NCBI GenBank assembly: GCA_023271215.1
Contig: JALPYG010000001.1
Coordinates: 1 to 51,156 of the forward strand
Reading direction: 5' to 3'
Length of the DNA stretch: 51,156 nt
DNA from: Dehalococcoidia bacterium
Lineage (GTDB): Bacteria; Chloroflexota; Dehalococcoidia; SZUA-161; SpSt-899
This document shows, piece after piece, positions 26,506 through 51,156 of the stretch. The notes under the pieces are model-generated. The model was not told the origin of the DNA. It did not search any database and was given only the letters and a program-made list of their open reading frames with translations. The position numbers were made by a program, and so were the translations under genes. The number at the start of each line of letters is the position of its first letter. Positions within the stretch are counted from its first letter, which is position 1.

Positions 26506-29310
26506 ATGGTTACCGCAGCCACTGTAACAGCACCAAGAACCATCTCAATGGAAGAATTCCGCCGGGAATGGGAGCCGAAGGGGTGGAGACTTATTATCAT
26601 CGGTCCCACCTCCACTTGGCGCCAAGAGTGGGGGATGTGGGAAGCCATCAGGGACATTGTCCAGAACTCATGTCCACACGATATGCCTCTTCTGATTTTG
26701 CAAAACCAGAGAGTTAAGTTTGTGCCCATTGGGGAATTTGTGGAAATGCATTTGGAAGATGAAAGGCAGGGCACCGTTAAAGACGAGGTTTATGCCTTAT
26801 CCTTCAAGAATCACAAAAGCCGGGGATATAAGCTGAGATGGCAAAGGATTCACAAAGTCTATCGCCATCATTATCAAGGAGATATGGTTGAGGTATCTCT
26901 CACCAATGGCCTAAAGGTAAGGGTTACCTGCGGGCACAGCTTATTCCGGAGAGACCTCAAGAAGGGCAGGATGTGGCTATGCTCTGTTCCCACTGATCGG
27001 TTGCACAAAACAGACTATATTGCCATTCCTTTTGCTAAATTGCTTGATTTCCCCGCCGCGGATGAAGTTGACTTGCTGGAGTTTCTTGAGCAGGAAAAAG
27101 ATTCCCTTAGAGTTCGAGGTATGTGTGATACCCTAGAATCCGTAGGTGTGGAAGTCAGTAAAGACGGCCGGAGCCGGGATTCGATCCCGCTCTGGACGAT
27201 ACCTGTTCCTCTACCGAAGGATACCTTACTTGGATACCACCATGCTTCCCATCCTGTTCGTAGAACTCTTCCCCTTGAACCACTGGCCTATCTACTCGGA
27301 CTTTACCTTGCAGAAGGTTCAATTGTGAATCACAGGAAGAAGGGCGACAAAGCTGTGTGCTTTTCCTTAGGTACACATGAGCATGAAGTCCTAGAGAAAG
27401 TGAAGAGGTGCGCCGAGCAAATTGGGGTAGGGGTCTCAGTTCAGCACCCACACGAAACAGCCATAAACACTGTCCTTAAATGTCATGTTCTTGCCCTTGT
27501 TTTTGAAAGGCTTTTTGGGAAGACTCGAGCAAATACCAAAGCCATCCCGGATTTTATTTTTAATCTCCCACATAAATTCCAGACGAAATTCCTCGAAGGA
27601 TACTTTGACGGCGACGGCTATGATCAAGGAGACAGAATAATTATAACCACCGCATCAAAGAAAATAGCCCAAGGTCTCCAGTATCTCCTTCTTCTTAATG
27701 GTATTCCCTTCAGCATCGAAGAGCAAGAAGGTAAAGAAAGGGTTATTGGCAAAAATAGAACCTTCTCTGGACCAGCAAATTACCTCTATATTCGCAAGTC
27801 GGGTCTTAACGGTAATGTCTCAAAGAGCCCTATTGCACGACAAAGGTGTGGTGACCTTAGCTTCGTCGGTGTGAAAGAGATTAAGCCTGTCGAGTATAAG
27901 CATCCGTGGGTCTATGATATAGGTGTTCCAGGGTGCGAGAACTTCGTCGGCGGGGAGAGTCCAGTCATACTACATAACTCCCTCGACGAGGCTGAAAAAT
28001 ATACCTGGGGCTTTGATGAAGAGGGTCTGTGGATCAAGGACCGGGGACAGGGCGTCCAGGTTGCCGACTTCCTCTTGGGTCCTCCCAGAACCAAGCCGCC
28101 TCATGCCAGGGGAAGATTTGGCGAAGGGATGAAGATCGCCGCCCTGGTGATGCTCCGCGAGGGATATGCCATCAGGATAGATACCGTGGGTCGGTCGGTG
28201 TGGATGATCTTCCTGGAGCAGGAAATAAACGGTACTGCCGAGGTCCTGGCGGCTATGTGGCGGCCCAATGGCTTGGACAGGGGAACTCGTTTCCACATCA
28301 TCGGCTACTTCGGGGATGACTACAAGTGGAACTTCGCTGTAAATATCCCCAGGAAGTTCATTGCTCATGAGGGCCCCAGCCGGCTCCACGAACCCATCAG
28401 ACGTTTCAACCAACTGATACTTTCCCCCAGTGGTAAGATCTACGCCCGGGATATCTACATGAGGGACATCAAGAGTCCCTACTCCTACAACCTCTGGAGC
28501 TTTGAAATGGCTCCCGATCGCCATGGCCCAAAACATGAATCCGACATGTGGGTCGACATGGGTCGCCTCTGGGCTACCTGCAAGCGCAAAGAACCCCTGC
28601 AGGTCTTGCTTCGGATGGTATCTATGCCTCCTGTTCTTGCAACTGATGAGTCTGTCAATCTCTCCATGAGTCCCTGGGACATGGGCCCCGAGCCGGTTTC
28701 CGGGAAGCGTTATACCGAAATCATGGAAGACAACAAGAAGGTGTGGCAGGATGCATGGAAAGAGGCTCACGGCGAGAATGCTGTCCTCAGACAGTCGGAT
28801 CGCTGGGACACTATGGTGACCCACCTAGGATACAAGTCGGTTAGTGTTTTCTACGGTGTTACTGATGCCCTTTCTAAGGTTATCTTGACTGATGAAGCTC
28901 TCATTCGGGACTCGCAGAAAAGGCTGGCTGAGGTTGAGATTATTCCTGATGAGGAGCTCACTGAACGCCAGCGTGCTCACCTCAGGCTGGCGCGCAAAAT
29001 AGCCGAGGCGACCCTAGTGCGTGAGCTTACCGGTGTCCACGCTGCCATAATACCCCCGGCAAGCGATCGGATGCGCACCGCGGGTCTCTACAGCTCAGCG
29101 GCTGAGACAATATACATCGCTGCTGACCAGCTCAACACGGCTCGGGCAACTGTGGATGTCCTGATCCACGAGATGGCTCATCATACCAGCGGGAGAGAAG
29201 ACGGCGATCCACTTCACAATGCACAGATGACGGTCCTGGGATCTCGGGTGGTGCAGTTGACAGCAGAGGGGCGCTTTGACGAGGAGTTGAAGAAGGCGGT
29301 GTGGTATTAA
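26506..29310 (+). CDS. GHKL (HATPase_c_3/MORC-like) ATPase with C-terminal HExxH domain, interrupted by an intein
   Basis: The extein gives the N-box DIVQN(S)SLDEA, the G1 box IKDRGQGV and the G2 box GRFGEGMKIAAL. The C-terminus has VLIHEMAHHTSGRED. Confidence 0.75.
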   Translation: MVTAATVTAPRTISMEEFRREWEPKGWRLIIIGPTSTWRQEWGMWEAIRDIVQNSCPHDMPLLILQNQRVKFVPIGEFVEMHLEDERQGTVKDEVYALSFKNHKSRGYKLRWQRIHKVYRHHYQGDMVEVSLTNGLKVRVTCGHSLFRRDLKKGRMWLCSVPTDRLHKTDYIAIPFAKLLDFPAADEVDLLEFLEQEKDSLRVRGMCDTLESVGVEVSKDGRSRDSIPLWTIPVPLPKDTLLGYHHASHPVRRTLPLEPLAYLLGLYLAEGSIVNHRKKGDKAVCFSLGTHEHEVLEKVKRCAEQIGVGVSVQHPHETAINTVLKCHVLALVFERLFGKTRANTKAIPDFIFNLPHKFQTKFLEGYFDGDGYDQGDRIIITTASKKIAQGLQYLLLLNGIPFSIEEQEGKERVIGKNRTFSGPANYLYIRKSGLNGNVSKSPIARQRCGDLSFVGVKEIKPVEYKHPWVYDIGVPGCENFVGGESPVILHNSLDEAEKYTWGFDEEGLWIKDRGQGVQVADFLLGPPRTKPPHARGRFGEGMKIAALVMLREGYAIRIDTVGRSVWMIFLEQEINGTAEVLAAMWRPNGLDRGTRFHIIGYFGDDYKWNFAVNIPRKFIAHEGPSRLHEPIRRFNQLILSPSGKIYARDIYMRDIKSPYSYNLWSFEMAPDRHGPKHESDMWVDMGRLWATCKRKEPLQVLLRMVSMPPVLATDESVNLSMSPWDMGPEPVSGKRYTEIMEDNKKVWQDAWKEAHGENAVLRQSDRWDTMVTHLGYKSVSVFYGVTDALSKVILTDEALIRDSQKRLAEVEIIPDEELTERQRAHLRLARKIAEATLVRELTGVHAAIIPPASDRMRTAGLYSSAAETIYIAADQLNTARATVDVLIHEMAHHTSGREDGDPLHNAQMTVLGSRVVQLTAEGRFDEELKKAVWY
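26668..27978 (+). mobile_element. intein with LAGLIDADG homing-endonuclease domain (~436-437 aa)
   Basis: N-terminal (S)CPHDMPLLIL. Block B GLKVRVTCGHSLF. LAGLIDADG motifs LLGLYLAEGS and FLEGYFDGDGY. C-terminal VYDIGVPGCENFVGGESPVILHN followed by Ser. The first intein residue is either Ser (26668) or Cys (26671). Confidence 0.8.
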
Positions 29311-40299: not shown

Positions 40300-40968
40300 T
40301 TAAACTTCATCAATCCACCTTATCCCTAATCGCTCTAGAGTTGGCTTTACGGACCTTTCACAAATGGTTCCCCAATCCTCGGCTTCTATTCCCCTGCAAC
40401 AAGAAAAGAGGTCTATTTTTAAGGGGATATTTCCATATTTAGATTCAAACGTGATCGCCCCTTCGATTGACCATTCATTCTTAGAATTTGGCAACTCTAT
40501 TATCCTGTCTGCTATCACTGAGAATTCCTCTTCACGATGCCTTATTTCTTTAGCCAATGTCCAAAGGGAAAAATCGATGATAGGATTAAAGAAGATCGTA
40601 ATAGAAAGCTCCCCCAAAGCCTTTAGCTTCCCCTCACTTGTGTGAGGACGAGTTAGGTTACTGGCCCATTCATCACCTTTCTCCCACCTCATAAGTTGTA
40701 GAGGAATATTTTTGTAAAGGAATATACAATCGATACACTTAATATGGACATCATCAAAACCTCTACTATATAGCAATAGAGTGAAAGCCAAAGGGGGAAA
40801 TGAGTGCCCCGAGGGTCCTGTCCGAAGCTCTCCCTTCACCCTTTCAATTGCGATCTTTTCTTGCAAAGCATCTCTTGCCCTTTTCTTAATCTTTTCTATA
40901 GGGATCCCAAATAATGGTTTAATTATTGGTCCCACCATAGGATTGACAAGCAAAGCACCAAGATCCAT
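40300..40968 (-). CDS. orphan hypothetical protein in an AT-rich island
   Basis: 222-aa ORF. Local composition is visibly more AT-rich than the flanks. No motif recognised. Confidence 0.55.
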   Translation of the reverse strand: MDLGALLVNPMVGPIIKPLFGIPIEKIKKRARDALQEKIAIERVKGELRTGPSGHSFPPLAFTLLLYSRGFDDVHIKCIDCIFLYKNIPLQLMRWEKGDEWASNLTRPHTSEGKLKALGELSITIFFNPIIDFSLWTLAKEIRHREEEFSVIADRIIELPNSKNEWSIEGAITFESKYGNIPLKIDLFSCCRGIEAEDWGTICERSVKPTLERLGIRWIDEV

Positions 40969-41382: not shown

Positions 41383-41748
41383 TCAACAAGGATGGAAATC
41401 ATCTGGCCCATCCTTAATCACAGCATACTTGAGTCCAGGCCCTCTGCTCCGAATCGTGTGGCACATCCCTATCGGTACATGAATGACGGTAGCCCTATTC
41501 AAGGATTCAATCACTTGGACATTATTCTCCGACCCTTGGCGAGTCACAAAATCAAACTCGGCGTCGCAGACGATCGTCCACTCGTTGGTCGTAAGGGGGT
41601 TGTGAATAGGAAAACCATGGTAGGGTGCTAACTGGTGCATTTGATAATACTTACCCCTTTTAGTCTGCAACTCCCGCATCAGGAGAGACACAGCCTCTTC
41701 AAGTGAATGACAGTTCTCGAACTCTCGGATCGTATGCCACGCCTTCAT
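41383..41748 (-). CDS. hypothetical protein (possibly small beta-barrel/cupin-like)
   Basis: Internal ATG 41748 follows GGAGGCAAAGAGTT. The longer 41805 start overlaps the upstream gene. Confidence 0.45.
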   Translation of the reverse strand: MKAWHTIREFENCHSLEEAVSLLMRELQTKRGKYYQMHQLAPYHGFPIHNPLTTNEWTIVCDAEFDFVTRQGSENNVQVIESLNRATVIHVPIGMCHTIRSRGPGLKYAVIKDGPDDFHPC

Positions 41749-41776
41749 AACTCTTTGCCTCCATGTCCACCTCCGT

Positions 41777-42151
41777 TTATGGGAAGAAAGTGTCAGCGGG
41801 ATCATACGGAGGTGAGTTTATGGCCAATAGCTGGAGTGTCGTCCGGCCAGAGTTCTTAATCGTATGGACACATCCTGGTGGAATGAGTACAGCATAACCC
41901 TGAGAGACGCTGTAGGCATTTTCCCCGATGGTAACTTCGCCTTGGCCTTCGAGAATGAAGTAGATCTCTTCAGTCTGCCGGTGCAAGTGAAGTTGCGCTG
42001 CCCGGCCTTCGTCTATGTTCACTTGTGCAAGATTTAGCCTTTGAGCATCCGTATTCTTCCTATCGATGAGCTCCCACACAAGGCCGCAATACCCTTGTAT
42101 CGCGGCTATCTCCTTTGCAGCAACAACTTTGGGCTTAGGCCCAGTGGCCAC
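41777..42151 (-). CDS. cupin-domain protein
   Basis: GTG 42151 follows GAGAGGAGGGG just after the pyrE stop. HLHRQTEEIYFILEGQGEVTIGENAYSVSQGYAVLIPPGCVHTIKNSG shows cupin motifs 1 and 2. Confidence 0.7.
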   Translation of the reverse strand: MATGPKPKVVAAKEIAAIQGYCGLVWELIDRKNTDAQRLNLAQVNIDEGRAAQLHLHRQTEEIYFILEGQGEVTIGENAYSVSQGYAVLIPPGCVHTIKNSGRTTLQLLAINSPPYDPADTFFP

Positions 42152-42168
42152 TCGGTATACCCCTCCTC

Positions 42169-42795
42169 TCAGGTTTGGGCACTCTCCAAATAGTCCATAG
42201 TTTTGCCATATTGTTCTTGGCTGATCTTTCCTGAATCGACATAGAACTTGAGCACTTCCTTCAGCTTGAAAGCAGTATGGCAACCATAACCACGTTTCTT
42301 GAGTTCTTCAACGCCACCTTGTTCTCGATCCATAAGAACCGCTACATCACCTACCTTGAGACCATTCTCTTCAAGAACAGCAATCGCTTCTAGTTTGCTA
42401 TCTGCCTGCGTAATTAGGTCATCAATCAAGAGGGCAACCTGTCCTTTCTTGAAAGCTCCATCAACTGGGCGTTTCATACCATGGCCCTTCTCTTCCCTTC
42501 GCGGTGAAATCATGGGGACTCTTGTCAAATGAGACAGGACAGCCACAATTGGTGTTGCTGCTGTCGGGATATCAGCGTAGACATCGAACTTAAGTCCTTC
42601 GGTTAGCTCCTCACAAACCTCGACCGCAGAATCCATGACGTCAGGAAACGACCTCAGTAATCGCAAGTCAATGTAAATGGGAGACAACGGAGCGTCCGGC
42701 TTTTTCTCGTGCAATTTCAGCTTGAACGCCCCGAACTTGATGGCACCTATATCAAACAGTTGTAGTGCAAGCTTTTTCTTTCTATCTGTTAGCAC
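42169..42795 (-). CDS. pyrE: orotate phosphoribosyltransferase (UMP-synthase-like type)
   Basis: IGAIKFGAFKLKLHEKKPDAPLSPIYIDLR, a PRPP loop VALLIDDLITQADS, LMDREQGG, and a C-terminal helix colinear with the OPRT half of eukaryotic UMPS. Confidence 0.85.
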   Translation of the reverse strand: MLTDRKKKLALQLFDIGAIKFGAFKLKLHEKKPDAPLSPIYIDLRLLRSFPDVMDSAVEVCEELTEGLKFDVYADIPTAATPIVAVLSHLTRVPMISPRREEKGHGMKRPVDGAFKKGQVALLIDDLITQADSKLEAIAVLEENGLKVGDVAVLMDREQGGVEELKKRGYGCHTAFKLKEVLKFYVDSGKISQEQYGKTMDYLESAQT

Positions 42796-42832
42796 TTTGC
42801 AGCCCCCTTCCGTTAGAATTTGATGTCAGAAC

Positions 42833-43582
42833 TCACGGTTTCGCCAATGCTGCTGCAATTTCTTCTGCAACCCGTCTGGCCGCATCCACAGGCGTGCCGA
42901 TTTGAGCTGGTGGCTTAGTTATGGGTCGCCCAATAACCACGTATGAAGCTCCATTTTTGATTGCCTCGCCCGGCGTCATTATTCTCTTTTGGTCTTGGGT
43001 AGCAGCCCAGGAAGGTCGGACGCCGGGCGTTACAATCAAGATTTGCCTTGAAGCATGACTGCGGATAGCTATGATTTCCTGAGGTGAGGCGATTACGCCA
43101 TCCAGCCCTGCCTTTTCAGCGAGCTTAGTCAAGTGAACAACTTGCGACTCGATGTCCCCAGGAATCTGCAACTGCTCCTTCATAGTTGCTTGGTCAATAC
43201 TGGTAAGGATAGTAACGCCAAGAACCAATGGCCGCTCTACCTGCAATTTACGCGCTTCTTCCGTAGCTGCTTCGAGAGCAAGTTTCATCATTTCAACTCC
43301 ACCCATTGCGTGAACATTAAACATTCGTACTGCTAACCTTGTCACGCCTCTTGATGCCCCAGCAACCGTGTTGGGAATATCATTAAACTTTCCGTCGTAG
43401 AAAACTTTCCCCCCCAGCTCAGCTACCTTTTGCACTATCCCGACACCTTCCCATGTGAGCAATTCCAGGCCTATTTTGAAGAGACCAACGTGCCCCTTCA
43501 GTGTTCGAACCAGTTCTAGCGCCTCCAGTTCAGTTGGCACATCCAGCGCCACAATAATCCGCTCATGAGTTGAGTCCAGCAT
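42833..43582 (-). CDS. pyrF: orotidine 5'-phosphate decarboxylase
   Basis: Motifs IIVALDV, LFKIGLEL, DGKFNDIPNTV, NVHAMGG, VTPGVRP and YVVIGRPI. AAGGAGG SD. Confidence 0.9.
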   Translation of the reverse strand: MLDSTHERIIVALDVPTELEALELVRTLKGHVGLFKIGLELLTWEGVGIVQKVAELGGKVFYDGKFNDIPNTVAGASRGVTRLAVRMFNVHAMGGVEMMKLALEAATEEARKLQVERPLVLGVTILTSIDQATMKEQLQIPGDIESQVVHLTKLAEKAGLDGVIASPQEIIAIRSHASRQILIVTPGVRPSWAATQDQKRIMTPGEAIKNGASYVVIGRPITKPPAQIGTPVDAARRVAEEIAAALAKP

Positions 43583-43604
43583 ACCAAGGCCTCCTTCTAA
43601 TCTT

Positions 43605-46600
43605 TCAGTGAGGCTGAATTTTGCGCCAACGCGCTGCGACGCTCTTTTTCTGACTCAAGTCGTCGACATCCTGGGGATCTATGCTCTTTTTGACAGGAAG
43701 CTCCTGACGCGCCAGGGCAATAGTATTCAAATAGAGCTCCGTGAGTACCAAATCTATTACCTCGTTTGGGATACCCTGGGCCCCCACAAAGTTAATAGGG
43801 AATCCATCTCCAAGAAGTAGAATCTTCTTGTCTTGTTGCATCAGTACATATTCAGTACCCACGACCTCTTTATCTACGGCTTTCGATACAGACCGCTTCG
43901 ATAGAGTCTTCAGAATATCAGGGCTAATTTCCTCTTGGTCTGATGAGACACTGACCAGCACGCTATCGGCCTGCAAGCGCCGTATCTCATCCGCGTGGAT
44001 TGAGGTGTTCCCAGTAGCACCAAGTATTAGCCAGCATTTCTCTGCTAATCTGGAAAGGCTCTCCTCATCTATGCAACCAGCAATTCGAGCCGCGGCTAGT
44101 CTCTGAGGGTCTCTATCATAGACGTGAACAACCATTGGAATCTTCCTCAGTTTCTCTGCAAGAGGGCGTCCTATGTTTCCGTAACCGATCACACCGGCGT
44201 GTTGACCGCAGAAGTTTTTGTTCGGTAGCATTCGCCTGATGTTCTGAATGGCAGCGTCAGCGACATGCGGCGATTCCATCTCCCTTTTGATGGTGCTCTC
44301 CGCGACATCCCGATAGGGGATCCGCATATGCATATTCATCTCCGCCAGCCGAGTCCTCACCCTTTCAACCCCCTTGGTGGTCTGTTCTACTACACCCCTG
44401 AATAGTTTAATGTCACCGAGATACTGTTTGTGTATAAGAGGGGTAAGATAGCCGCCATCCTCAACGATTATGATTTGCTTCTTCTCAGTTTTCTTGGCGG
44501 TCGAAACTACAAGGTCTAGCGCTTGCTCCACCTGATTCAGCGGGGAAAGCGCGTACCCCAGCCCCTTGAGCTGTCTTTCTACCTCTATGCCGTGCTTGTA
44601 TGGATACAACTTATAAATCAGGTGTACATTGTGCGGGCCGACCTGCACTCTCTTCATCGCCAATAGAAAGCCGTATAGGTCTTCCACAAGGTGCAGAATG
44701 AAAAGAAATCGAAAGTTGGAAAGGTCGGTACCCAATCGCTTCTCTTCTTTGGAATACTCGTCCAGAAGTTGCAAAGTCTCCATTGGTGCCAACTGATCAA
44801 GCGTGTTGGCGGCACCTGCCCCTTTGCTTGGGAGCGAGGACGCCTCGCCTCTGCCCACGTCCCATTGAACTTCCAGTACTCTTTCTTGAACAGTGGCTTT
44901 CGCGGCTACGTATTCTTCGCAAGTATAGGCCAGCTCTTGTGCAGTTTTCGCTAGCTCCTCTGCAATGTAGAGGCCACCCGGGCCAACCCCCGCCGCCCTG
45001 GTCAAGAACTGCTGCTTTTGTTCCAGTTCTTGCCGGCGCATCGGGCCAGCCTGGCGATGCCTACCCAGGCACATGCTGATGTGCAGTGGAAGCACAGTGG
45101 TAGGTTGAACTCGTTCGCTTGTCTCTTGCAGCACACGAATCGCAGCGGTGAAACCTTTTTTTGAATCATCAAAGACTACCAGCTTCCCGTTGCCTTCCTC
45201 CACACAAACTTTACCTCCAGATTCCTCGATAGTAGCTGGGAGTTCGTCAGTGCAATACTTGCTTACCCTATGTATCTCAAGGGGGGACAGAGAAGGGAAA
45301 CTGGCACGCAATTCATCCGTGCGGATATACATGAATACAGAGCCTTCAATTTGGGCCCATGGCTCGGCAAGATTGTTCAGATTTACAACCCTTAATGGGT
45401 CGACCTCCAAAGTTGATTCGGGTGCGGGCAATTCGCTCTTAAAAACTCGGCATATATCCTCGTAAAGCCTGCCGAGAGGGGCTAGTAACGAGCGCAAGAA
45501 AGCAAAACTCAGAGATTCGTCACTGATCGAAAAGGGTGCTAGCAATTCCTCTGATGTTACCAGACCCGCGGATGCTTCTCTTACTCTAGCGAGATAATAG
45601 TCTAGTTTATTCTTCTTTTCATGTTCGTCTCGTCTATCAGAAATATTGAATTCCTCAACCCTGGAGAATATATATTTGGTCATCGTGGTGACGGCTTTCA
45701 TTAATTGGCCCAGGCGCTTCAGGAACAGTAGTCGGGGGGATAGACTGTCTTGTGGAGCTATGCGGCTTAACATCCTGCTCCCAAGCTTCAACAGCACGAT
45801 GTCGTCCTGGTCCTTTATCATCTGATCCAGTTCTCTTCTCGTATCTGCGACCCTCTCATATCGTGTTACTTTGCCAACAATCTCGCCAGTGTCGCCGATA
45901 GCCTGTAAGACCATCACTTCGGCCCAGGTTATTGTCTTATCGAAGCCTTCTGCCTTGCGACCATTAAACCTCCTGTTGCAGAGGTCAAGAAAACGCCGGA
46001 ACGCGCGTTCCCACAACACAAGATTATGATGAGCATATTTGTAAGTGCTTTCTTCGTCAAAACAGGCCGACAGAGTTAATAGATTGTCCACAGCAGGTCG
46101 CTTTGCCCCAGCCTCCAATCTGTTAAAAATCGCCGAATAAACCTGCAAGTATCCGTCAATATTTGCAAGCTCATTTTCATCATAGTAGTCAGAAACCACT
46201 TTCTGCCAGCCTTTGCTGGGTATCCAACGTTCTCGGCGTCGGCCTGCGGGCGGTTTCGACTTTATGAATGCTTCTCCATCGCCGACCAGTTCATACAGAT
46301 TTCCACCACGTTCTATGGCGCTCGTGGAACTGGGAATCCGCGGCAATGGCCCGAATGGGCCAGCAGATGCCTCCCAAGAGGCCCATTCTCGCCTTTCCGA
46401 CTTTTTCAGCCAATCAAGGATTAGGCAAGCCATTACCTTGCAGGCCAGGAATGGCTCGACTCCGTCCTTTTGTGTTGGGCAATACTTCATCAACCGGTCT
46501 AGGAGAAAAGACACGAGGAATTTGTCTCGCCTAAAACGATCTATGGCTGGATCCAGTGCTCTGGAGTCTTCGTGGCCCACCTGCTCCGGGGGGGTTCCTG

Positions 46601-48218
46601 GTGCTGGTTCCCCTGGGCCGTAAGCCCTTCTAAACTTAAATATCCTGTCACTTAGTCTGGTCTTCAGGTTAACAGGCACGATTAGAGTCCTGTCTAGCCC
46701 CAAATCTAATGCAAAGCTAACTTCCCATGGCATGAGATCCCCTTCTACTCGTTGGCAGATCTCTGAGAATGTCAGCCCTTGCTTCTCCCGCTCGTGCTCT
46801 TGCACAAGCAGGTTTGTGACTGGCAGAATGTGCCGCACCGCTTCCAACTGCCTGCTTGCTATTAGATCTTGGGAAAAGAATGAATCAAGTGTTTTGTCCT
46901 GCTTATCAAACATTCTGCGCTGATGTGCAATGCTCGGATGCAGCTTCACAACCTTACTTAAGTATTGTATTATGCACTCGGCAAGCGTCTTGCCCAACTC
47001 AGGCCCGTAGGAATATTCCAAATCCTCGCGGTTAATGAACGGGTCGACGAGCGATACTTGGAATACGCTGCCTTTACTATTCATACGGCTTAGTAGCTGT
47101 TCCAGCATCATTTGGCTAAGATTTAGCGAGAGGTCTCTATAGCAGGCTTGGGCTTTTTGCTCTTCTGAAAGCAGGTCATACTTAAGTCCCATCTCTCTCA
47201 AATTGATTGGAAGGTGGCTATCTCGCTCATCATTATCGAAATAAGTGTCAATACTAAATGTGGCTTCTGGCATGGTCAAACCTAAGACTCCGAAGCTATC
47301 GGTTCCTAAGTCGTAATAGAACCTGAACTTGATCACGCCATCCTCAAAGTTAAGCACAATAGGAAGATCAGCCATCTCGGTATCCAGCGCGACAAAGTTC
47401 GGGCAATCGAGTGTAATGGTGACGATTCCGTTCTCTTCTGCAATAGACGGAACAACGAAAACAGTTCCTAGCTCGGCTAGGAATTCAAGGAATTCTTTTA
47501 GCCCCCTGGGTTTCTTCTTGCCACTAAAGGCAAGGAATATGGTGAAATGATCTGTATCCTGAGTCCGCCCTCTCAACAACAGATGTTCAGTGAGTTCTGC
47601 ACAGGCCTTAGTAAAGTCATGACCAGCTAGACTCATCCATATTCGAGCCGTCTGATCCTGAGGCACTGGCTTTACAGGAATAAACGACTGGCGGTCGACA
47701 AATGCGAAGGTGCGAACTGTAGCCCCCCGGTCTTCAAGATATTTTCGTTTTTCATAAAGTTTATGTCCATGCTGCTTAGAATCATCCACCAGCGCAATAT
47801 ATTTGCCGCTTATCTCCACATCGGGCATTAGTTCAAGCGCCTGGAAGTTGCAGACAATACCCTCATGACCTGATAGTGAGTGTACCAACTCGGCAAACCA
47901 TAATTGGCCTCTACGTTCCAACGAAGCTAGAATATCGGGCTTGGTTTCACATATCTCCTGTGCATACTCGCGGGAAGCCGGTCCGTATTTTGCCTCCCAG
48001 GCCGACCTTCTGTTCGCCATTGAACCGGCAACTGATACCCTAGCTAGTTGTGAGGCGTTCTGAGCTAGCCACTTGTCAATAGCGTCCTTTGAGAACCGCC
48101 ATTGGTTGCCGATCTTAGTTGCCTTTATCTCAGCCCTTTGAATCATTCGATAAACGGTCATATGCGATAAGCGAAGATACCATGCCACCTCATCTAGAGT
48201 AAGTAAGCGATCCTCCAT
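43605..48218 (-). CDS. 1537-aa multidomain protein: excisionase/MerR-type HTH, PRTase-like domain, long helical middle with a degenerate nucleotide-cyclase-like segment, C-terminal AdoHcy-hydrolase-like NAD domain
   Basis: N-terminal HTH LTLDEVAWYLRLSHMTVYRMIQRAEIKATKIGNQWRF. PRTase-like GKYIALVDDSKQHGHKL. C-terminal IIVEDGGYLTPLIH, GVVEQTTKGVERV and GVIGYGNIGRPLAEKL are colinear with SAHH DDGGD, EETTTGV and GYGDVGKG. Confidence 0.85.
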   Translation of the reverse strand: MEDRLLTLDEVAWYLRLSHMTVYRMIQRAEIKATKIGNQWRFSKDAIDKWLAQNASQLARVSVAGSMANRRSAWEAKYGPASREYAQEICETKPDILASLERRGQLWFAELVHSLSGHEGIVCNFQALELMPDVEISGKYIALVDDSKQHGHKLYEKRKYLEDRGATVRTFAFVDRQSFIPVKPVPQDQTARIWMSLAGHDFTKACAELTEHLLLRGRTQDTDHFTIFLAFSGKKKPRGLKEFLEFLAELGTVFVVPSIAEENGIVTITLDCPNFVALDTEMADLPIVLNFEDGVIKFRFYYDLGTDSFGVLGLTMPEATFSIDTYFDNDERDSHLPINLREMGLKYDLLSEEQKAQACYRDLSLNLSQMMLEQLLSRMNSKGSVFQVSLVDPFINREDLEYSYGPELGKTLAECIIQYLSKVVKLHPSIAHQRRMFDKQDKTLDSFFSQDLIASRQLEAVRHILPVTNLLVQEHEREKQGLTFSEICQRVEGDLMPWEVSFALDLGLDRTLIVPVNLKTRLSDRIFKFRRAYGPGEPAPGTPPEQVGHEDSRALDPAIDRFRRDKFLVSFLLDRLMKYCPTQKDGVEPFLACKVMACLILDWLKKSERREWASWEASAGPFGPLPRIPSSTSAIERGGNLYELVGDGEAFIKSKPPAGRRRERWIPSKGWQKVVSDYYDENELANIDGYLQVYSAIFNRLEAGAKRPAVDNLLTLSACFDEESTYKYAHHNLVLWERAFRRFLDLCNRRFNGRKAEGFDKTITWAEVMVLQAIGDTGEIVGKVTRYERVADTRRELDQMIKDQDDIVLLKLGSRMLSRIAPQDSLSPRLLFLKRLGQLMKAVTTMTKYIFSRVEEFNISDRRDEHEKKNKLDYYLARVREASAGLVTSEELLAPFSISDESLSFAFLRSLLAPLGRLYEDICRVFKSELPAPESTLEVDPLRVVNLNNLAEPWAQIEGSVFMYIRTDELRASFPSLSPLEIHRVSKYCTDELPATIEESGGKVCVEEGNGKLVVFDDSKKGFTAAIRVLQETSERVQPTTVLPLHISMCLGRHRQAGPMRRQELEQKQQFLTRAAGVGPGGLYIAEELAKTAQELAYTCEEYVAAKATVQERVLEVQWDVGRGEASSLPSKGAGAANTLDQLAPMETLQLLDEYSKEEKRLGTDLSNFRFLFILHLVEDLYGFLLAMKRVQVGPHNVHLIYKLYPYKHGIEVERQLKGLGYALSPLNQVEQALDLVVSTAKKTEKKQIIIVEDGGYLTPLIHKQYLGDIKLFRGVVEQTTKGVERVRTRLAEMNMHMRIPYRDVAESTIKREMESPHVADAAIQNIRRMLPNKNFCGQHAGVIGYGNIGRPLAEKLRKIPMVVHVYDRDPQRLAAARIAGCIDEESLSRLAEKCWLILGATGNTSIHADEIRRLQADSVLVSVSSDQEEISPDILKTLSKRSVSKAVDKEVVGTEYVLMQQDKKILLLGDGFPINFVGAQGIPNEVIDLVLTELYLNTIALARQELPVKKSIDPQDVDDLSQKKSVAARWRKIQPH

Positions 48219-48242
48219 GTTTTCCTCCTGACACTGTTGTTA

Positions 48243-48271
48243 ATTATAGTTAATCATTGACAAGAAGTCAA
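48243..48271 (-). promoter_or_regulatory. near-consensus sigma70 promoter of the giant gene with overlapping palindrome
   Basis: On the minus strand: TTGACT (48271-48266), a 17-nt spacer, then TATAAT (48248-48243), about 25 nt upstream of ATG 48218. The inverted repeat TTGAC-AAGAA-GTCAA overlaps the -35. Confidence 0.65.
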
Positions 48272-48370
48272 GTCTCTCTTTTGCGTCTTTATGGCATCGA
48301 TCAGATAGGGGATTAGCAATAGGCTATTTCTTCAACCTGACCCGGACGAGCCGGAACCAAAAAGTTTTCC

Positions 48371-48706: not shown

Positions 48707-49186
48707 TTAGCCCTCTGGTCGTCTTCTCAGTTCAAGTTCCCAGTAAACAACATCTGGGAGTGGATTGCTATAATATCGGTCGATCCTTTTGAAGTCCAGG
48801 GACTCGTATAGCCTCATCGCTTCGGTAAGGATATGAAGTGTGTCAAGCCGCATTCGACTATAGCCGATCCGGGCAGCTTCTTCGATTATTCTCTGGGCGA
48901 GCAGCTTGCCGAGACCACGTCCCCTGTGTTGAGGTCTGACAAAGAGCCGTTTCATCTCGCAGACATCGTCTTCCAACTCCTTGACGGCAACGCACCCCAT
49001 CACATCTTGTCCCTCTACAGCCATTAGGAGCGCTCCTTTTGGGGGAGCGTATTTGCCAGGAAGTCTGACGAGTTCTTCCTCAAAATTCTGGAAGCATAAG
49101 TCGACGTTGAGGAACTTCTCGTACTCGCGGAATAGTTGACGTATTTCAGCTAATTCCTCCGCTGTCTTTGCATGGATGATTTCCAC
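48707..49186 (-). CDS. GNAT-family N-acetyltransferase
   Basis: LFVRPQHRGRGLGKLLAQRIIEEA is the acetyl-CoA motif A (Q/RxxGxG/A). Confidence 0.85.
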   Translation of the reverse strand: MEIIHAKTAEELAEIRQLFREYEKFLNVDLCFQNFEEELVRLPGKYAPPKGALLMAVEGQDVMGCVAVKELEDDVCEMKRLFVRPQHRGRGLGKLLAQRIIEEAARIGYSRMRLDTLHILTEAMRLYESLDFKRIDRYYSNPLPDVVYWELELRRRPEG

Positions 49187-49360: not shown

Positions 49361-50063
49361 TCAATGCGTAGAAGTCGAAGCAGGCTTGACGAGTCGTCCA
49401 ACCGCGACCGTCAAACGCTCTTGCGTCTCTTCATCGAACCACTGTGCCACAATTTCGTCCATATGGCTTTTATCCAGGCTTTGCATGCTTTCAGCGACAG
49501 CCCCACGTAGATAGCGTTTAAGGCGCTGATATCCTGCAGGAGGCTTGCTGCCCAAAAGGTGCGCCTTTTCGAGTGCTCGGTCTAGAATAGCATCCGGCTC
49601 GACGACCTCGTCAACCAACCCAATAGCGAGAGCTTGCTGAGGGGAATGGGTCTCCCCGCCCAGCAACACCTTGTTGGCCAAATGGCCGCCGAGGACGTAC
49701 CGGACCATCTCCACGGTTCCCGCAGGCGCCGCTAGGCCGATGTCGATTTCCATCAGCCCAATCTTGAAGGGTCCGTCGACCATGAGGCGGTAGTCGCCGG
49801 CCAGCGCCATGATGCATCCCCCAGCGAGAGCATGACCGTTTAAAGCGTACACCTCCGGTTTGGGATATACGAACTTGCGGTGAAGGAGGGCAGTCATTTC
49901 TTCGAAGAAGTGGCGTACCTCAGAACGGGAATATCCCATAAGCGTTGGCAGGTCAACGCCGGGAGAGAACATGGTCTTGTGAGAGGATGTCACCACAAGA
50001 CCACGAATCGCATCATCCTGCTCGATAAAAAATGCCTACATCTTCAATACGCTCGAGCTTCAT
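49361..50063 (-). pseudogene. enoyl-CoA hydratase/isomerase (crotonase) family gene, frameshifted and internally deleted near the 5' end
   Basis: AAGGAGG plus ATG 50063 give MKLERIEDVGIFYRAG*. The family-like frame (FIEQDDAIRGLVVTS...GHALAGGCIMALAGDYR) resumes one frame over, at a T6 run near 50025-50030. About 25-30 aa that are normally present between these parts are absent. Confidence 0.65.
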
Positions 50064-50219: not shown

Positions 50220-51156
50220 GTTAGCGGTCGGCTTCCGGCTAGAGCCAGCGGTTTCCCGACCAGCCCCCCCACAGACCCGGACGTGAGCAATTAACTCATC
50301 CGGTTCCTCGGTAACTAGAGCCTCGGCACAACTCTAGCGCATAACTTTGCTGCCCTGCAGGCTTCTCAGATGTAATAGACGATTTTGGGCTTGGGAAGCA
50401 GGTAGCTCAATTGCATCCGCTCGGATTTTTCCCACGATATGGCGCTCTTGTGACTGCGTCTGCTCAGCCAGTACCGCCACGTTTTCTCGGCGTGCTCGAA
50501 GACTACCTCCAGCATTCGATAGTTACCCCTGATGCCGTAGTATTGAAAGTGTCCTCGTAGCTTTTGGCTCAGTTCCTTGAACTGCTCTTTCAGCGGCATG
50601 TGGCGATTTCGTTCGCACCACCGCCATATCGCCTTCATCGTGCGTCGCATTCGTTTCCTGGCCGTCTCCCGCTTGATGACCCAATATCCCCGGCGTGACT
50701 TGGCCCAGTAGTGGGTGAATCCGAGAAAGTCAAATGTGCCGTTCCCACTCGCCCCCTCTTTCCTAGAGTTTGGCTTCCCGAACCGCACCAGCGCCGTCTT
50801 CTCAGGATGAATGGTCAGCCCGTAGCAGGCAAACCGCTTCGGTAGCACTTCCATCACCCGTCGGGCGTCTTCTTCCCGCTCGCATCCGATAATAAGGTCA
50901 TCGGCAAAACGAATCAGAAAGCTTCGGCCTTTCAACCTGGGCTTTATCTGTTGCTCATACCATTCATCCAGTACCTGATGCAGAAATATATTCGCTAACA
51001 TCGGGGAAATTACCCCACCTTGCGGTGTGCCTTTTTCTGGGTGGGTTAACGTTTCCCCTTCCAGCTCCCCTTCCAGCACGCCAGCGTTGAGGAATTTCCC
51101 GATGAGGCGAATTATCCCCCCATCATTGACCCGCCGCTTGATAATCTCTCGCAGCT
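50220..51156 (-). mobile_element. group II intron, 3' part (5' part lies beyond the window)
   Basis: RT/maturase ORF plus a domain V-like hairpin at 50274-50306 (minus strand GAACCGGAUGAG...CUCACGUCCGGGUC with an AC bulge). A domain VI-like helix follows. The 3' boundary is approximate. Confidence 0.75.
50366..51156 (-). CDS. group II intron reverse transcriptase/maturase, N-terminally truncated by window edge
   Basis: GTPQGGVISPMLANIFLH (RT block 4), IRFADDLIIG (block 5, YADD-type), FDFLGFTHYW, and a maturase X-like C-terminus. The frame is open to nt 51156. Confidence 0.85.
   Translation of the reverse strand, partial: LREIIKRRVNDGGIIRLIGKFLNAGVLEGELEGETLTHPEKGTPQGGVISPMLANIFLHQVLDEWYEQQIKPRLKGRSFLIRFADDLIIGCEREEDARRVMEVLPKRFACYGLTIHPEKTALVRFGKPNSRKEGASGNGTFDFLGFTHYWAKSRRGYWVIKRETARKRMRRTMKAIWRWCERNRHMPLKEQFKELSQKLRGHFQYYGIRGNYRMLEVVFEHAEKTWRYWLSRRSHKSAISWEKSERMQLSYLLPKPKIVYYI

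Follow-up and report, generated by a model that had tools for sequence, protein, structure and literature searches.

Why should the genes of the two terminal enzymes of de novo uridine monophosphate (UMP) synthesis follow, within one operon, a gene coding for a giant multi-domain protein? The question is raised by the minus-strand operon at 41383..48271 of a stretch of Dehalococcoidia DNA (contig JALPYG010000001.1, positions 1 to 51,156; the whole stretch of 51,156 nucleotides (nt) is hereafter called the window), in which the open reading frame (ORF) of the giant protein (P0001, 43605..48218, 1537 amino acids (aa)) is followed by four co-directional genes, namely pyrF, pyrE and two small cupin genes. 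P0001 is identical to the NCBI entry [quoted passage not shown]. An initial annotation, made from the sequence alone, had put forward two candidate roles for this protein, either a ligand-sensing transcription factor for pyrimidine synthesis or a nucleotide-based conflict system located at the edge of a mobile element. The evidence presented below favours the second role, and the first probably survives only as a component of it, namely as autoregulation by the helix-turn-helix (HTH) domain at a conserved operator. On balance, we lean towards an undescribed, horizontally mobile, nucleotide-centred conflict cassette, not a housekeeping pyr regulator, and such a conflict cassette would most likely be anti-phage. 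The best explanation of the comparative data is a cassette core of three genes, coding for a giant HTH-bearing sensor/output protein, an orotidine monophosphate (OMP) decarboxylase and an orotate phosphoribosyltransferase (OPRTase), with the window operon being a derived member; the housekeeping-regulator reading is disfavoured.

A Three-Gene Cassette in Defence Neighbourhoods

The linkage to pyrF and pyrE, pointed out for the window by the initial annotation, turned out to be conserved, as the order giant gene, OMP decarboxylase gene, OPRTase gene was found in 15/15 cassettes having downstream DNA. These comprise the window, six loci of close relatives (L001-L006), two loci of distant relatives obtained from a representative search (L010 and L011), and six further ones (L012, L013 and L065-L068) from two GTDB reference metagenome-assembled genomes (MAGs; Pirellulales and Pyrinomonadaceae) and four JGI/NCBI metagenome contigs. 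Cassette hosts are MAGs of Chloroflexota (Dehalococcoidia), Planctomycetota and Acidobacteriota, in addition to unbinned metagenome contigs. Of the 13 cassettes for which genes were called, 12 have gaps of 0-56 nt or overlapping genes, the exception being L011 with a gap of 276 nt. The two enzymes are much more conserved than the giant protein, and the pattern is incongruent: where the giants share 23-26% identity, pyrF is at 64-67% and pyrE at 64-74%, the same level as that found with giants 39-45% identical.

The giant protein is also exceedingly uncommon, with only seven close relatives among 5.8 billion protein clusters. An exhaustive profile search extended the superfamily to 364 representatives (E<=1e-3), nearly all of them unnamed singletons; a word-indexed homology search with the broad alignment retrieved no distant relatives. 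The possibility that homologues would prove to be common housekeeping regulators, considered together with the initial annotation, did not materialise, since they are very rare and unnamed.

The association with defence loci suspected at the outset found support in the neighbourhoods, where known defence systems adjoin family members. Every cassette located on a longer contig adjoins known defence or mobile genes: DISARM DrmA/DrmB, a C5 methylase, an HNH endonuclease, HipA and an integrase fragment in L013, a type III restriction-modification (R-M) system in L011, SIR2 PDC-S65 and AbiEii in L010, PDC-M03A/B and a type II R-M system in L001, and a transposase in L012. The window cassette is itself flanked on one side by a phage-like, one-strand block of 39 kb and on the other by a group II intron. 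One HTH-bearing relative, P0013 (1091 aa, both metal-binding Asp of its cyclase domain kept; L008 7377-11276, and L009), occurs without pyrF/pyrE; it is preceded by a gene for a 174-aa PycTM protein (PADLOC E=1e-18) and stands beside BrxA/BrxB of BREX. This locus looks like a Pycsar-like system in which the cyclase is a giant protein with HTH and phosphoribosyltransferase (PRTase)-fold domains.

Operon and Operator

The region is best explained as a single, autoregulated operon. The promoter/operator block upstream of the giant gene (48224..48272, minus strand) contains the promoter TTGACT-17-TATAAT at 48271..48243 (-35 TTGACT, 48271-48266; -10 TATAAT, 48248-48243), which with 11/12 consensus matches is the top sigma-70-like site of the region. 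An inverted repeat, TTGAC (48271-48267)/GTCAA (48261-48257), covers the -35 element, in agreement with the strong promoter of its own and the palindrome over the -35 initially described, and a second, imperfect repeat (AACTAT..ACAGTG) surrounds the -10 element and is followed by the Shine-Dalgarno sequence GGAGG. This promoter/operator block of ~45 nt is near-invariant in the 7 closest loci, with giants 35-86% identical, and the flanks farther upstream are unrelated. The block of these seven loci was not found upstream of the more distant cassettes, where upstream sequences differ. The predicted binding of the HTH domain to this conserved operator suggests autorepression.

Downstream, the junctions are as first reported, with 22 nt between the stop of the giant gene and the pyrF start, a gap carrying AGAAGGAGG, and with pyrE and two small same-strand genes behind. 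All four intergenic junctions are short and each has a Shine-Dalgarno sequence. The genes, all on the minus strand, are pyrF (42833..43582, 249 aa, catalytic motifs intact), pyrE (42169..42795, 208 aa, of the UMP synthase (UMPS) type), cupin 1 (41777..42151, 124 aa, GTG start at 42151) and cupin 2 (41383..41748, 121 aa, ATG start at 41748), both cupin starts having been corrected by homologue comparison. No tRNA, riboswitch or leader RNA was detected near the operon, nor any tRNA in the whole window. From promoter to terminator, the cassette is compact (~6.9 kb).

The Constant Part of the Giant Protein

The four domains initially assigned to the giant protein (HTH, PRTase-like, degenerate cyclase and S-adenosylhomocysteine hydrolase (SAHH)-like) all held under profile or fold searches, and the impression that no described protein has such an architecture persisted, none having been found via PADLOC or in the literature. 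The coordinates given below for the domains refer to the minus strand. The N-terminal excisionase/MerR-type HTH (aa 5-54, 48057..48206) is an HTH_17 domain (PF12728 E=3.4e-15; TIGR01764 2e-15; MADS1-like 4e-15, under the cut-off of that model), as anticipated, and is present in 22/24 diverse relatives.

The next domain, with a type I PRTase fold (aa ~69-219, 47562..48014), was proposed from the segment around YIALVDDSKQHG. P0001 itself has no Pfam Pribosyltran match, and the assignment is backed by its structural matches and by its homologues. Foldseek aligned the domain to HGXPRT (1hgx_B, E=1e-3, TMt 0.57) and also to PyrR (4p81_C, TMt 0.52; 4p3k) and HGPRT, and Pribosyltran was matched in 9/24 diverse relatives, only P0015 being above threshold (32.6 vs a cut-off of 26.3 bits). 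Among the 24 diverse members, R102 is invariant and G104 near-invariant in the pyrophosphate-loop-like RRG, and D145 and Q149 are near-invariant in the motif of the phosphoribosyl pyrophosphate (PRPP) loop; invariance of D146 and G151 is confined to the close family of seven members. By analogy with PurR, the domain could equally bind a ligand without carrying out phosphoribosyl transfer. The idea that it is a duplicate of pyrE was rejected, the similarity being limited to the generic PRPP loop.

What follows had been described as about 900 aa of unassigned helical sequence. This has to be corrected, because the segment has ~735 aa and is, in the predicted structure, mixed alpha/beta plus helical. 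It starts with an alpha/beta region (aa 219-404, 47007..47564; pLDDT mostly >90) that opens with a superfamily-wide DxDH motif (D221, D223, H224) and carries a GVxKxRFY motif (K297, R299). A middle region (aa 404-679, 46182..47009; D505, R531 and E537 invariant, K594, D602 and G623 near-invariant) and a helical region (aa 678-954, 45357..46187; Y726 and K783 invariant) complete it. It is within aa 219-954 that the superfamily-wide invariant residues sit (H224, K297, R299, D505, R531, E537, Y726 and K783), and none of the three regions had relatives in the PDB by profile search; a BFVD search gave matches at the PRTase and cyclase level only. The AlphaFold core model of aa 60-1127, built from a 64-sequence superfamily alignment, reached pLDDT 87.4 and pTM 0.88, as compared with pLDDT 58 for the model built from seven sequences only. 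A second palm/cyclase domain or a Cas10-like layout, at which long Foldseek alignments to Cmr2 and AC5 had hinted, was discarded, because the TM scores were ~0.11 and a comparison of the DxDH region with the cyclase domain by hhalign gave no signal for a second palm.

Exchangeable Nucleotide-Directed Outputs

Behind this constant part lies a class III cyclase homology domain (aa 956-1124, 44847..45353), recognised by both profile and Foldseek searches. The family profile matches class III cyclases of the PDB (E=3e-4), including 7R65 at 3e-3, which is BcPycC (PMC11224242), and Foldseek aligned the domain to the Ma1120 cyclase (E ~4e-4, TMt ~0.6). The initial annotation had called it a degenerate cyclase with GNG for GDG; it proved to be even more altered, as the first metal-binding Asp is lost too. 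The window protein has R at the position of this Asp (F-x-D-[IL]), GNG for GDG, and Q for the transition-state Asn. An alignment of 15 family cyclase domains showed that both metal Asp are kept in all short forms and distant relatives, and that every SAHH-fused long form has R, G or N at the first position and GNG, GNS or ENA at the second. Judged from these substitutions, the long-form clade, of five protein clusters only, appears to have inactivated its cyclase and gained a new C-terminal module.

That module (aa 1128-1537, 43608..44837) is a full SAHH-sized unit, colinear with SAHH as had been noted from the sequence, and belongs to a distinct clade of NAD-binding enzymes. It matches the NCBIfam adenosylhomocysteinase model NF004005 (E=1.7e-25), yet with 89.7 bits vs a cut-off of 275, and TIGR00936 with 80 vs 497.6 bits, below the curated SAHH threshold; further matches are PDB SAHH 7r39 (E=6e-14) and PF00670 (E=5.7e-10). 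Outside the giant proteins, aa 1128-1537 match, with 32-45% identity, proteins 450-600 aa long that are rare and stand alone; the clade members (P0166-P0201) are annotated as adenosylhomocysteinase.

A 35-sequence alignment of the clade revealed invariant H1176, E1253-D-G-G-Y, G1275, E1278-Q-T, G1283, K1311 and E1315, near-invariant V1277, T1281 and K1282, and the motifs GxGxxG, SxSSDxxE and GxPxNF; GxGxxG, GxTG and N1476 are conserved in the 35 members. With catalytic residues numbered according to human SAHH (H55, D131, E156, K186, D190, N191, H301, H353), the clade retains without exception the NAD-binding motifs and the equivalents of H55, D131, E155, K186 and N346, whereas E156->Q, D190->E and H301->S have become fixed. 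The window module has in addition N191->S and H353->I, so that the full SAHH catalytic set is not present. This residue pattern is what would be expected of an active NAD-dependent enzyme whose chemistry has changed, and not of a domain in decay. One clade member, P0198, has an N-terminal SAVED domain (CBASS effector models, E ~1e-23) followed by the SAHH-like module, which means that the module can fill the effector slot of a cyclic-oligonucleotide-sensing protein. Since the clade occurs as rare stand-alone proteins and in this SAVED fusion, it would represent a distinct enzyme and not the SAHH of the methyl cycle, which suggests an unrecognised effector enzyme family.

Among the superfamily representatives of at least 850 aa, the census counted 39 in which an HTH accompanies core and cyclase, 34 consisting of core and cyclase, and 5 having an additional SAHH-like module. 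Relatives lacking the HTH stand alone, without pyrF/pyrE; P0164, for instance, combines the complete core with the cyclase. A PNP_UDP_1 nucleosidase-type domain takes the place of the cyclase in P0080 and P0097. P0080 is found at L070 2888-6745, and members of the P0080/P0097 type adjoin conjugation-type genes (TrbL_4). Because cyclase, PNP and SAHH-like forms occur, the superfamily can be described as a constant N-terminal part (PRTase fold and middle regions) combined with a swappable C-terminal output. As predicted from their domains, all of these outputs (active cyclase, PNP nucleosidase, and dead cyclase plus SAHH-like module) are nucleotide-directed.

PyrF, PyrE and the Cupins

Both partner enzymes look competent. 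PyrF passes the NCBIfam equivalog cut-off (NF001273, 246 vs 193 bits) and has the catalytic DxKxxD motif, and its motifs FYDGKFNDIPNT, FKIG and GRPI are conserved in all cassettes. PyrE scores under the NCBIfam cut-offs (NF010382, 122.7 vs 208; TIGR00336, 89.7 vs 106.8) and in the PDB matches human OPRT (2wns, E=8e-34) and Leishmania UMPS (3qw4, E=9e-31). Its PRPP loop and flexible-loop Lys match those of solved OPRTases, with DDLITQADSKLEA resembling Leishmania DDLVSTGETKVEA. The suspicion that the PRPP loop (TQADSK) is aberrant was dismissed, since Leishmania UMPS has STGETK at this place and the human OPRT match is at E=8e-34.

A reverse search with the pyrE alignment returned 53 loci, only two of them with the giant gene, and stand-alone pyrE genes with up to 67% identity were seen in Dehalococcoidales, Chloroflexia, candidate phyla radiation (CPR) and DPANN genomes. 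Given these stand-alone genes of the same type, the cassette pyrE can be taken as a bona fide Chloroflexi/CPR-type OPRTase gene. This type is carried by the cassettes of the Dehalococcoidia, Pirellulales and Pyrinomonadaceae MAGs alike, and has in this way entered Planctomycetota and Acidobacteriota. At five loci in CPR and other genomes (L016, L019, L020, L045 and L053), the same UMPS-like pyrE type lies inside ORFs of 450-530 aa, and those of L016 and L053 also match the pyrF profile, which suggests fused OMP decarboxylase-OPRTase genes. In L005, a JGI metagenome contig, a second, type-2 OMP decarboxylase (61-861) is encoded directly upstream of the cassette, with 21% identity to the cassette pyrF, and this organism has two side-by-side OMP decarboxylase genes. 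Taken together, the sequence comparisons argue that the cassette pyrF and pyrE are probably dedicated extra copies.

The cupins were found in the window, L001 and L002 only, with cupin 2 at ~74% identity there. Cupin 1 is a Cupin_2 protein (PF07883, E=1e-15) with the HxH..E / PxGxxH metal motifs, and cupin 2 has weak profile support only (Cupin_1 E=0.079; WbuC cupin E=0.023). A search among them for a Pac13-like nucleoside dehydratase found matches of cupin 1 to generic small PDB cupins and none for cupin 2. No conserved fourth gene or effector was found 3' of pyrE across the cassettes.

Comparison with Known Systems

No cassette protein matched a PADLOC model, except for the mad1 HTH, and the cassette description was not found in the literature. 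As it furthermore lacks at least one defining feature of each of Pycsar, CBASS, ShosTA, SAHH and PurR/PyrR, the cassette matches no described system. Among nucleotide-sensing regulators, PurR and PyrR of Bacillus subtilis use a PRTase fold to control nucleotide-synthesis genes. The giant protein shares with them the combination of a DNA-binding domain and a PRTase-fold ligand-binding domain, and its conserved operator overlaps the promoter. It differs in having HTH_17 and not the PuR_N winged helix, and in its 1537 aa as opposed to the ~180 aa of stand-alone PyrR; it is five times larger, carries enzyme output domains, and is rare, mobile and found in defence islands. PyrR is among its structural matches, and the similarity to PyrR is structural only.

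Another likeness, in idea only, is to the prokaryotic viperins (pVips), which confer immunity through making modified nucleotides. The cassette would likewise be a defence locus making a ribose-modified pyrimidine nucleotide, but it is without a radical-SAM enzyme, and the parallel is drawn without support from similarity searches. Regarding SAHH itself, the homology of the module is colinear over a full SAHH-sized unit and keeps the GxGxxG, TGN and N346 equivalents, but the scores lie far under the family cut-offs and active-site residues are altered. The SAVED-fused effectors of CBASS are comparable insofar as P0198 carries the same SAHH-like module behind SAVED; the window, however, contains neither SAVED nor CD-NTase, and the PRTase fold and middle regions occupy the place of SAVED.

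Pycsar consists of a PycC cyclase and a PycTM or PycTIR receptor-effector, with PycC proteins having one or two cyclase domains and short N- or C-terminal elements (PMC11224242). Shared with these systems are a cyclase homology domain of the class III type, placed C-terminally in the superfamily core, the defence-island context, the PycTM beside P0013 and the two metal-binding Asp kept by most giant relatives. In the giant protein, on the other hand, ~950 aa (HTH, PRTase fold and middle regions) lie N-terminal to the cyclase, the window cyclase is predicted to be catalytically dead, the window cassette has no effector of the cyclic nucleotide monophosphate (cNMP)-receptor kind (PycTM/PycTIR), and the invariant partners are an OMP decarboxylase and an OPRTase, not known in Pycsar. 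Finally, ShosT, a PRPP-binding PRTase, acts in defence by disrupting nucleotide pools in combination with a coupled pyrophosphatase activity (PMC11961720). Here too a PRPP-binding type I PRTase fold is associated with a second activity making the reaction irreversible, and PyrE plus PyrF obey the same thermodynamic logic. Yet the cassette is unrelated in sequence, with no PADLOC ShosT or ShosA match, and has no DprA-like antitoxin; of its PRTases, one is a genuine OPRTase and the other, distinct from it, a sensor-like domain of the giant protein; and ShosT perturbs purine metabolism.

A Model for the Proposed Conflict Cassette

A working model can be outlined from these features. HTH_17 would repress the operon at the conserved operator overlapping the -35 and -10 elements, and the PRTase-fold domain would bind PRPP or a pyrimidine mononucleotide, forming with the ~735-aa middle region the sensing/regulatory part. 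Upon a trigger, the C-terminal enzyme would act on nucleotides, the ancestral output being presumably the class III cyclase and that of the window protein the SAHH-like NAD-dependent enzyme, probably together with the two cupins. PyrE and PyrF may provide an irreversible flux from PRPP and orotate to UMP that is coupled to this output; preferably, they would supply the uridine nucleotide for conversion to a cyclic or ribose-modified product, and/or drain PRPP. This would upset the pyrimidine/PRPP pool or generate a nucleotide that blocks replication. The specific substrate-supply chemistry assigned here to PyrE and PyrF is tentative, and as such rather doubtful. Distinctly unlikely is its boldest version, an anti-phage system of a new mechanistic class in which UMP made on demand is converted by the output enzymes of the giant protein to a replication-blocking uridine nucleotide. 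In such a system, a 3'-oxidising SAHH-like NAD-dependent enzyme and the two cupins would yield a 3'-keto, didehydro or cyclic product, that is, viperin-independent antiviral nucleotides whose production would be switched on by the PRPP/nucleotide-sensing PRTase-fold domain.

Several points weigh against a conflict cassette. The defence role is deduced from neighbourhood and domain logic, and no recognisable killing effector (pore, nuclease or NADase) was found in the cassette. A plain metabolic role may apply, since PyrE is up to 67% identical to ordinary stand-alone pyrE products and both enzymes look like normal UMP-forming ones, and genuine nucleotide-sensing regulators likewise combine an HTH with a PRTase fold. 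The effect of a PRPP drain would be limited by orotate supply, and the cupins showed no specific similarity to known nucleoside-modifying cupins. Moreover, direct evidence for mobility is limited to differing flanks, because the close family is absent from IMG/VR, the INPHARED phages and the PLSDB plasmids.

If the defence role is true, this would be the first system with both terminal enzymes of de novo UMP synthesis as invariant parts, tying core pyrimidine metabolism and PRPP directly to immunity. If the cassette is metabolic instead, its regulatory design, in which a hypervariable giant protein goes with near-constant PyrE/PyrF, would still be an unusual one. The superfamily, with its 364 representatives, consists of giant PRTase-fold proteins with swappable outputs and ~735 aa of conserved sequence without known relatives, and the SAHH-like clade, found also behind a SAVED sensor, points to unrecognised effector chemistry.

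Alternative Explanations

The alternative that survives best, although unlikely, is a mobile pyrimidine-metabolism operon in which the giant protein would be an oversized PurR/PyrR-like regulator that senses PRPP or UMP and serves no purpose beyond control of the two UMP-forming genes, and the island would carry metabolic cargo and not immunity. HTH_17 with a PRTase fold that has PyrR among its Foldseek matches, a conserved operator over the promoter, intact and ordinary-looking pyrF and pyrE, and the correlation of HTH presence with that of pyrF/pyrE are all expected from such an operon. A regulator, however, has no need of ~1100-1500 aa including active cyclase, PNP or SAHH-like domains, and within the family there are pairings with PycTM as well as nucleosidase or SAVED-associated modules. 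The divergence of the giant protein down to 23% identity while the enzymes stay at 64% or above is unusual for a regulator-target pair, and the extreme rarity and patchiness of the family, the defence genes adjoining the cassette on all longer contigs and the extra OMP decarboxylase beside the L005 cassette also speak against such an operon.

To a toxin-antidote arrangement we give a smaller chance still. In its favour, the giant gene and pyrF overlap or are closely coupled in translation, and the cassette is without a separate effector. The output of the giant protein, proposed to be bulk NTP cyclisation in the short forms and SAHH-like oxidation/elimination in the long ones, would deplete or damage pyrimidine nucleotides; co-translated PyrE/PyrF would buffer its basal activity, and infection would tip the balance toward depletion. 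None of the contexts seen combines PycTM with pyrF/pyrE, the superfamily itself includes nucleotide-depleting effectors such as PNP, and ShosTA offers a precedent for nucleotide-pool disruption with a non-binding antidote. Nevertheless, stand-alone cyclase or PNP relatives do without such an antidote, orotate limits the resupply of UMP, and the idea is purely inferential, the pyrimidine specificity of the outputs being without support.

The cassette might also be a biosynthetic gene cluster (BGC) for a uridine-derived, nucleoside-antibiotic-like metabolite directed against competitors, not phages, with PyrE/PyrF supplying the precursor, the SAHH-like enzyme and cupins tailoring it, and the HTH of the giant protein acting as pathway regulator. 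Such clusters often duplicate precursor-supply genes, and the window does place copies of primary-metabolism enzymes beside tailoring-type enzymes (SAHH-like module and two cupins). Transporter, resistance or further tailoring genes are nonetheless missing, most cassettes are without cupins and reduce to a core of just three genes, the context is that of defence islands and not BGC-like, and the superfamily has ties to PycTM, SAVED and PNP, so this origin appears quite improbable.

Canonical Pycsar signalling, with cyclic UMP or cyclic CMP made from PyrE/PyrF-supplied pyrimidines and an effector encoded elsewhere, has very little probability left. The class III cyclase fold with BcPycC 7R65 among the profile matches, the PycTM-linked relative and the metal Asp pair of short forms and distant relatives would suit it. 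For the window protein, though, it is already refuted by the active-site substitutions as read from the alignment, which affect both metal-binding Asp and the transition-state Asn; no PycTM, PycTIR or cNMP-binding gene is present in the cassette, and UMP is two kinase steps short of a cyclase substrate. Chance adjacency of a housekeeping pyrF-pyrE pair (pyrF does exceed the housekeeping equivalog threshold) and an unrelated large gene is effectively refuted by the 15/15 synteny across phyla down to 23% giant identity, the short gaps or overlaps in 12/13 cassettes and the shared promoter block.

Surroundings of the Window Cassette

The phage-like block occupies 1-39400 on the plus strand, all genes being on this one strand with positive GC skew, and has the appearance of a prophage or other mobile element. 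It holds a gene for an 1867-aa protein with fn3/PhoD_N repeats (minor-tail PHROG match), an S8 subtilase gene, a beta-clamp-like gene, RusA-like matches and an MCM-like AAA ATPase. Within it, the 934-aa ORF at 26506-29310 (plus strand) combines an intein splicing domain with a LAGLIDADG homing endonuclease, interrupting a host gene. Between this block and the cassette, a 222-aa ORF (40300-40968, minus strand) lies in a trough of 41% GC; Pfam, NCBIfam and PADLOC gave no match for it, and it does not recur beside other cassettes.

On the other side, upstream of the cassette and on the same strand, a GNAT acetyltransferase (48707-49186, minus strand) and an enoyl-CoA hydratase (49361-49996, minus strand) are encoded, neither of them conserved beside other cassettes. 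The hydratase matches its family profile from position 47 only and is probably truncated at its N-terminus. Farther out lies a group II intron domain-5-like RNA (50220-50309, minus strand), with Rfam matches at E=1.4e-4 and 0.047 that are below the gathering score, and just upstream of it a reverse-transcriptase/maturase-like ORF, seemingly truncated (50366-51079, minus strand). The elements at 50220-51079 probably represent a fragment of a group II intron at the flank of the island.

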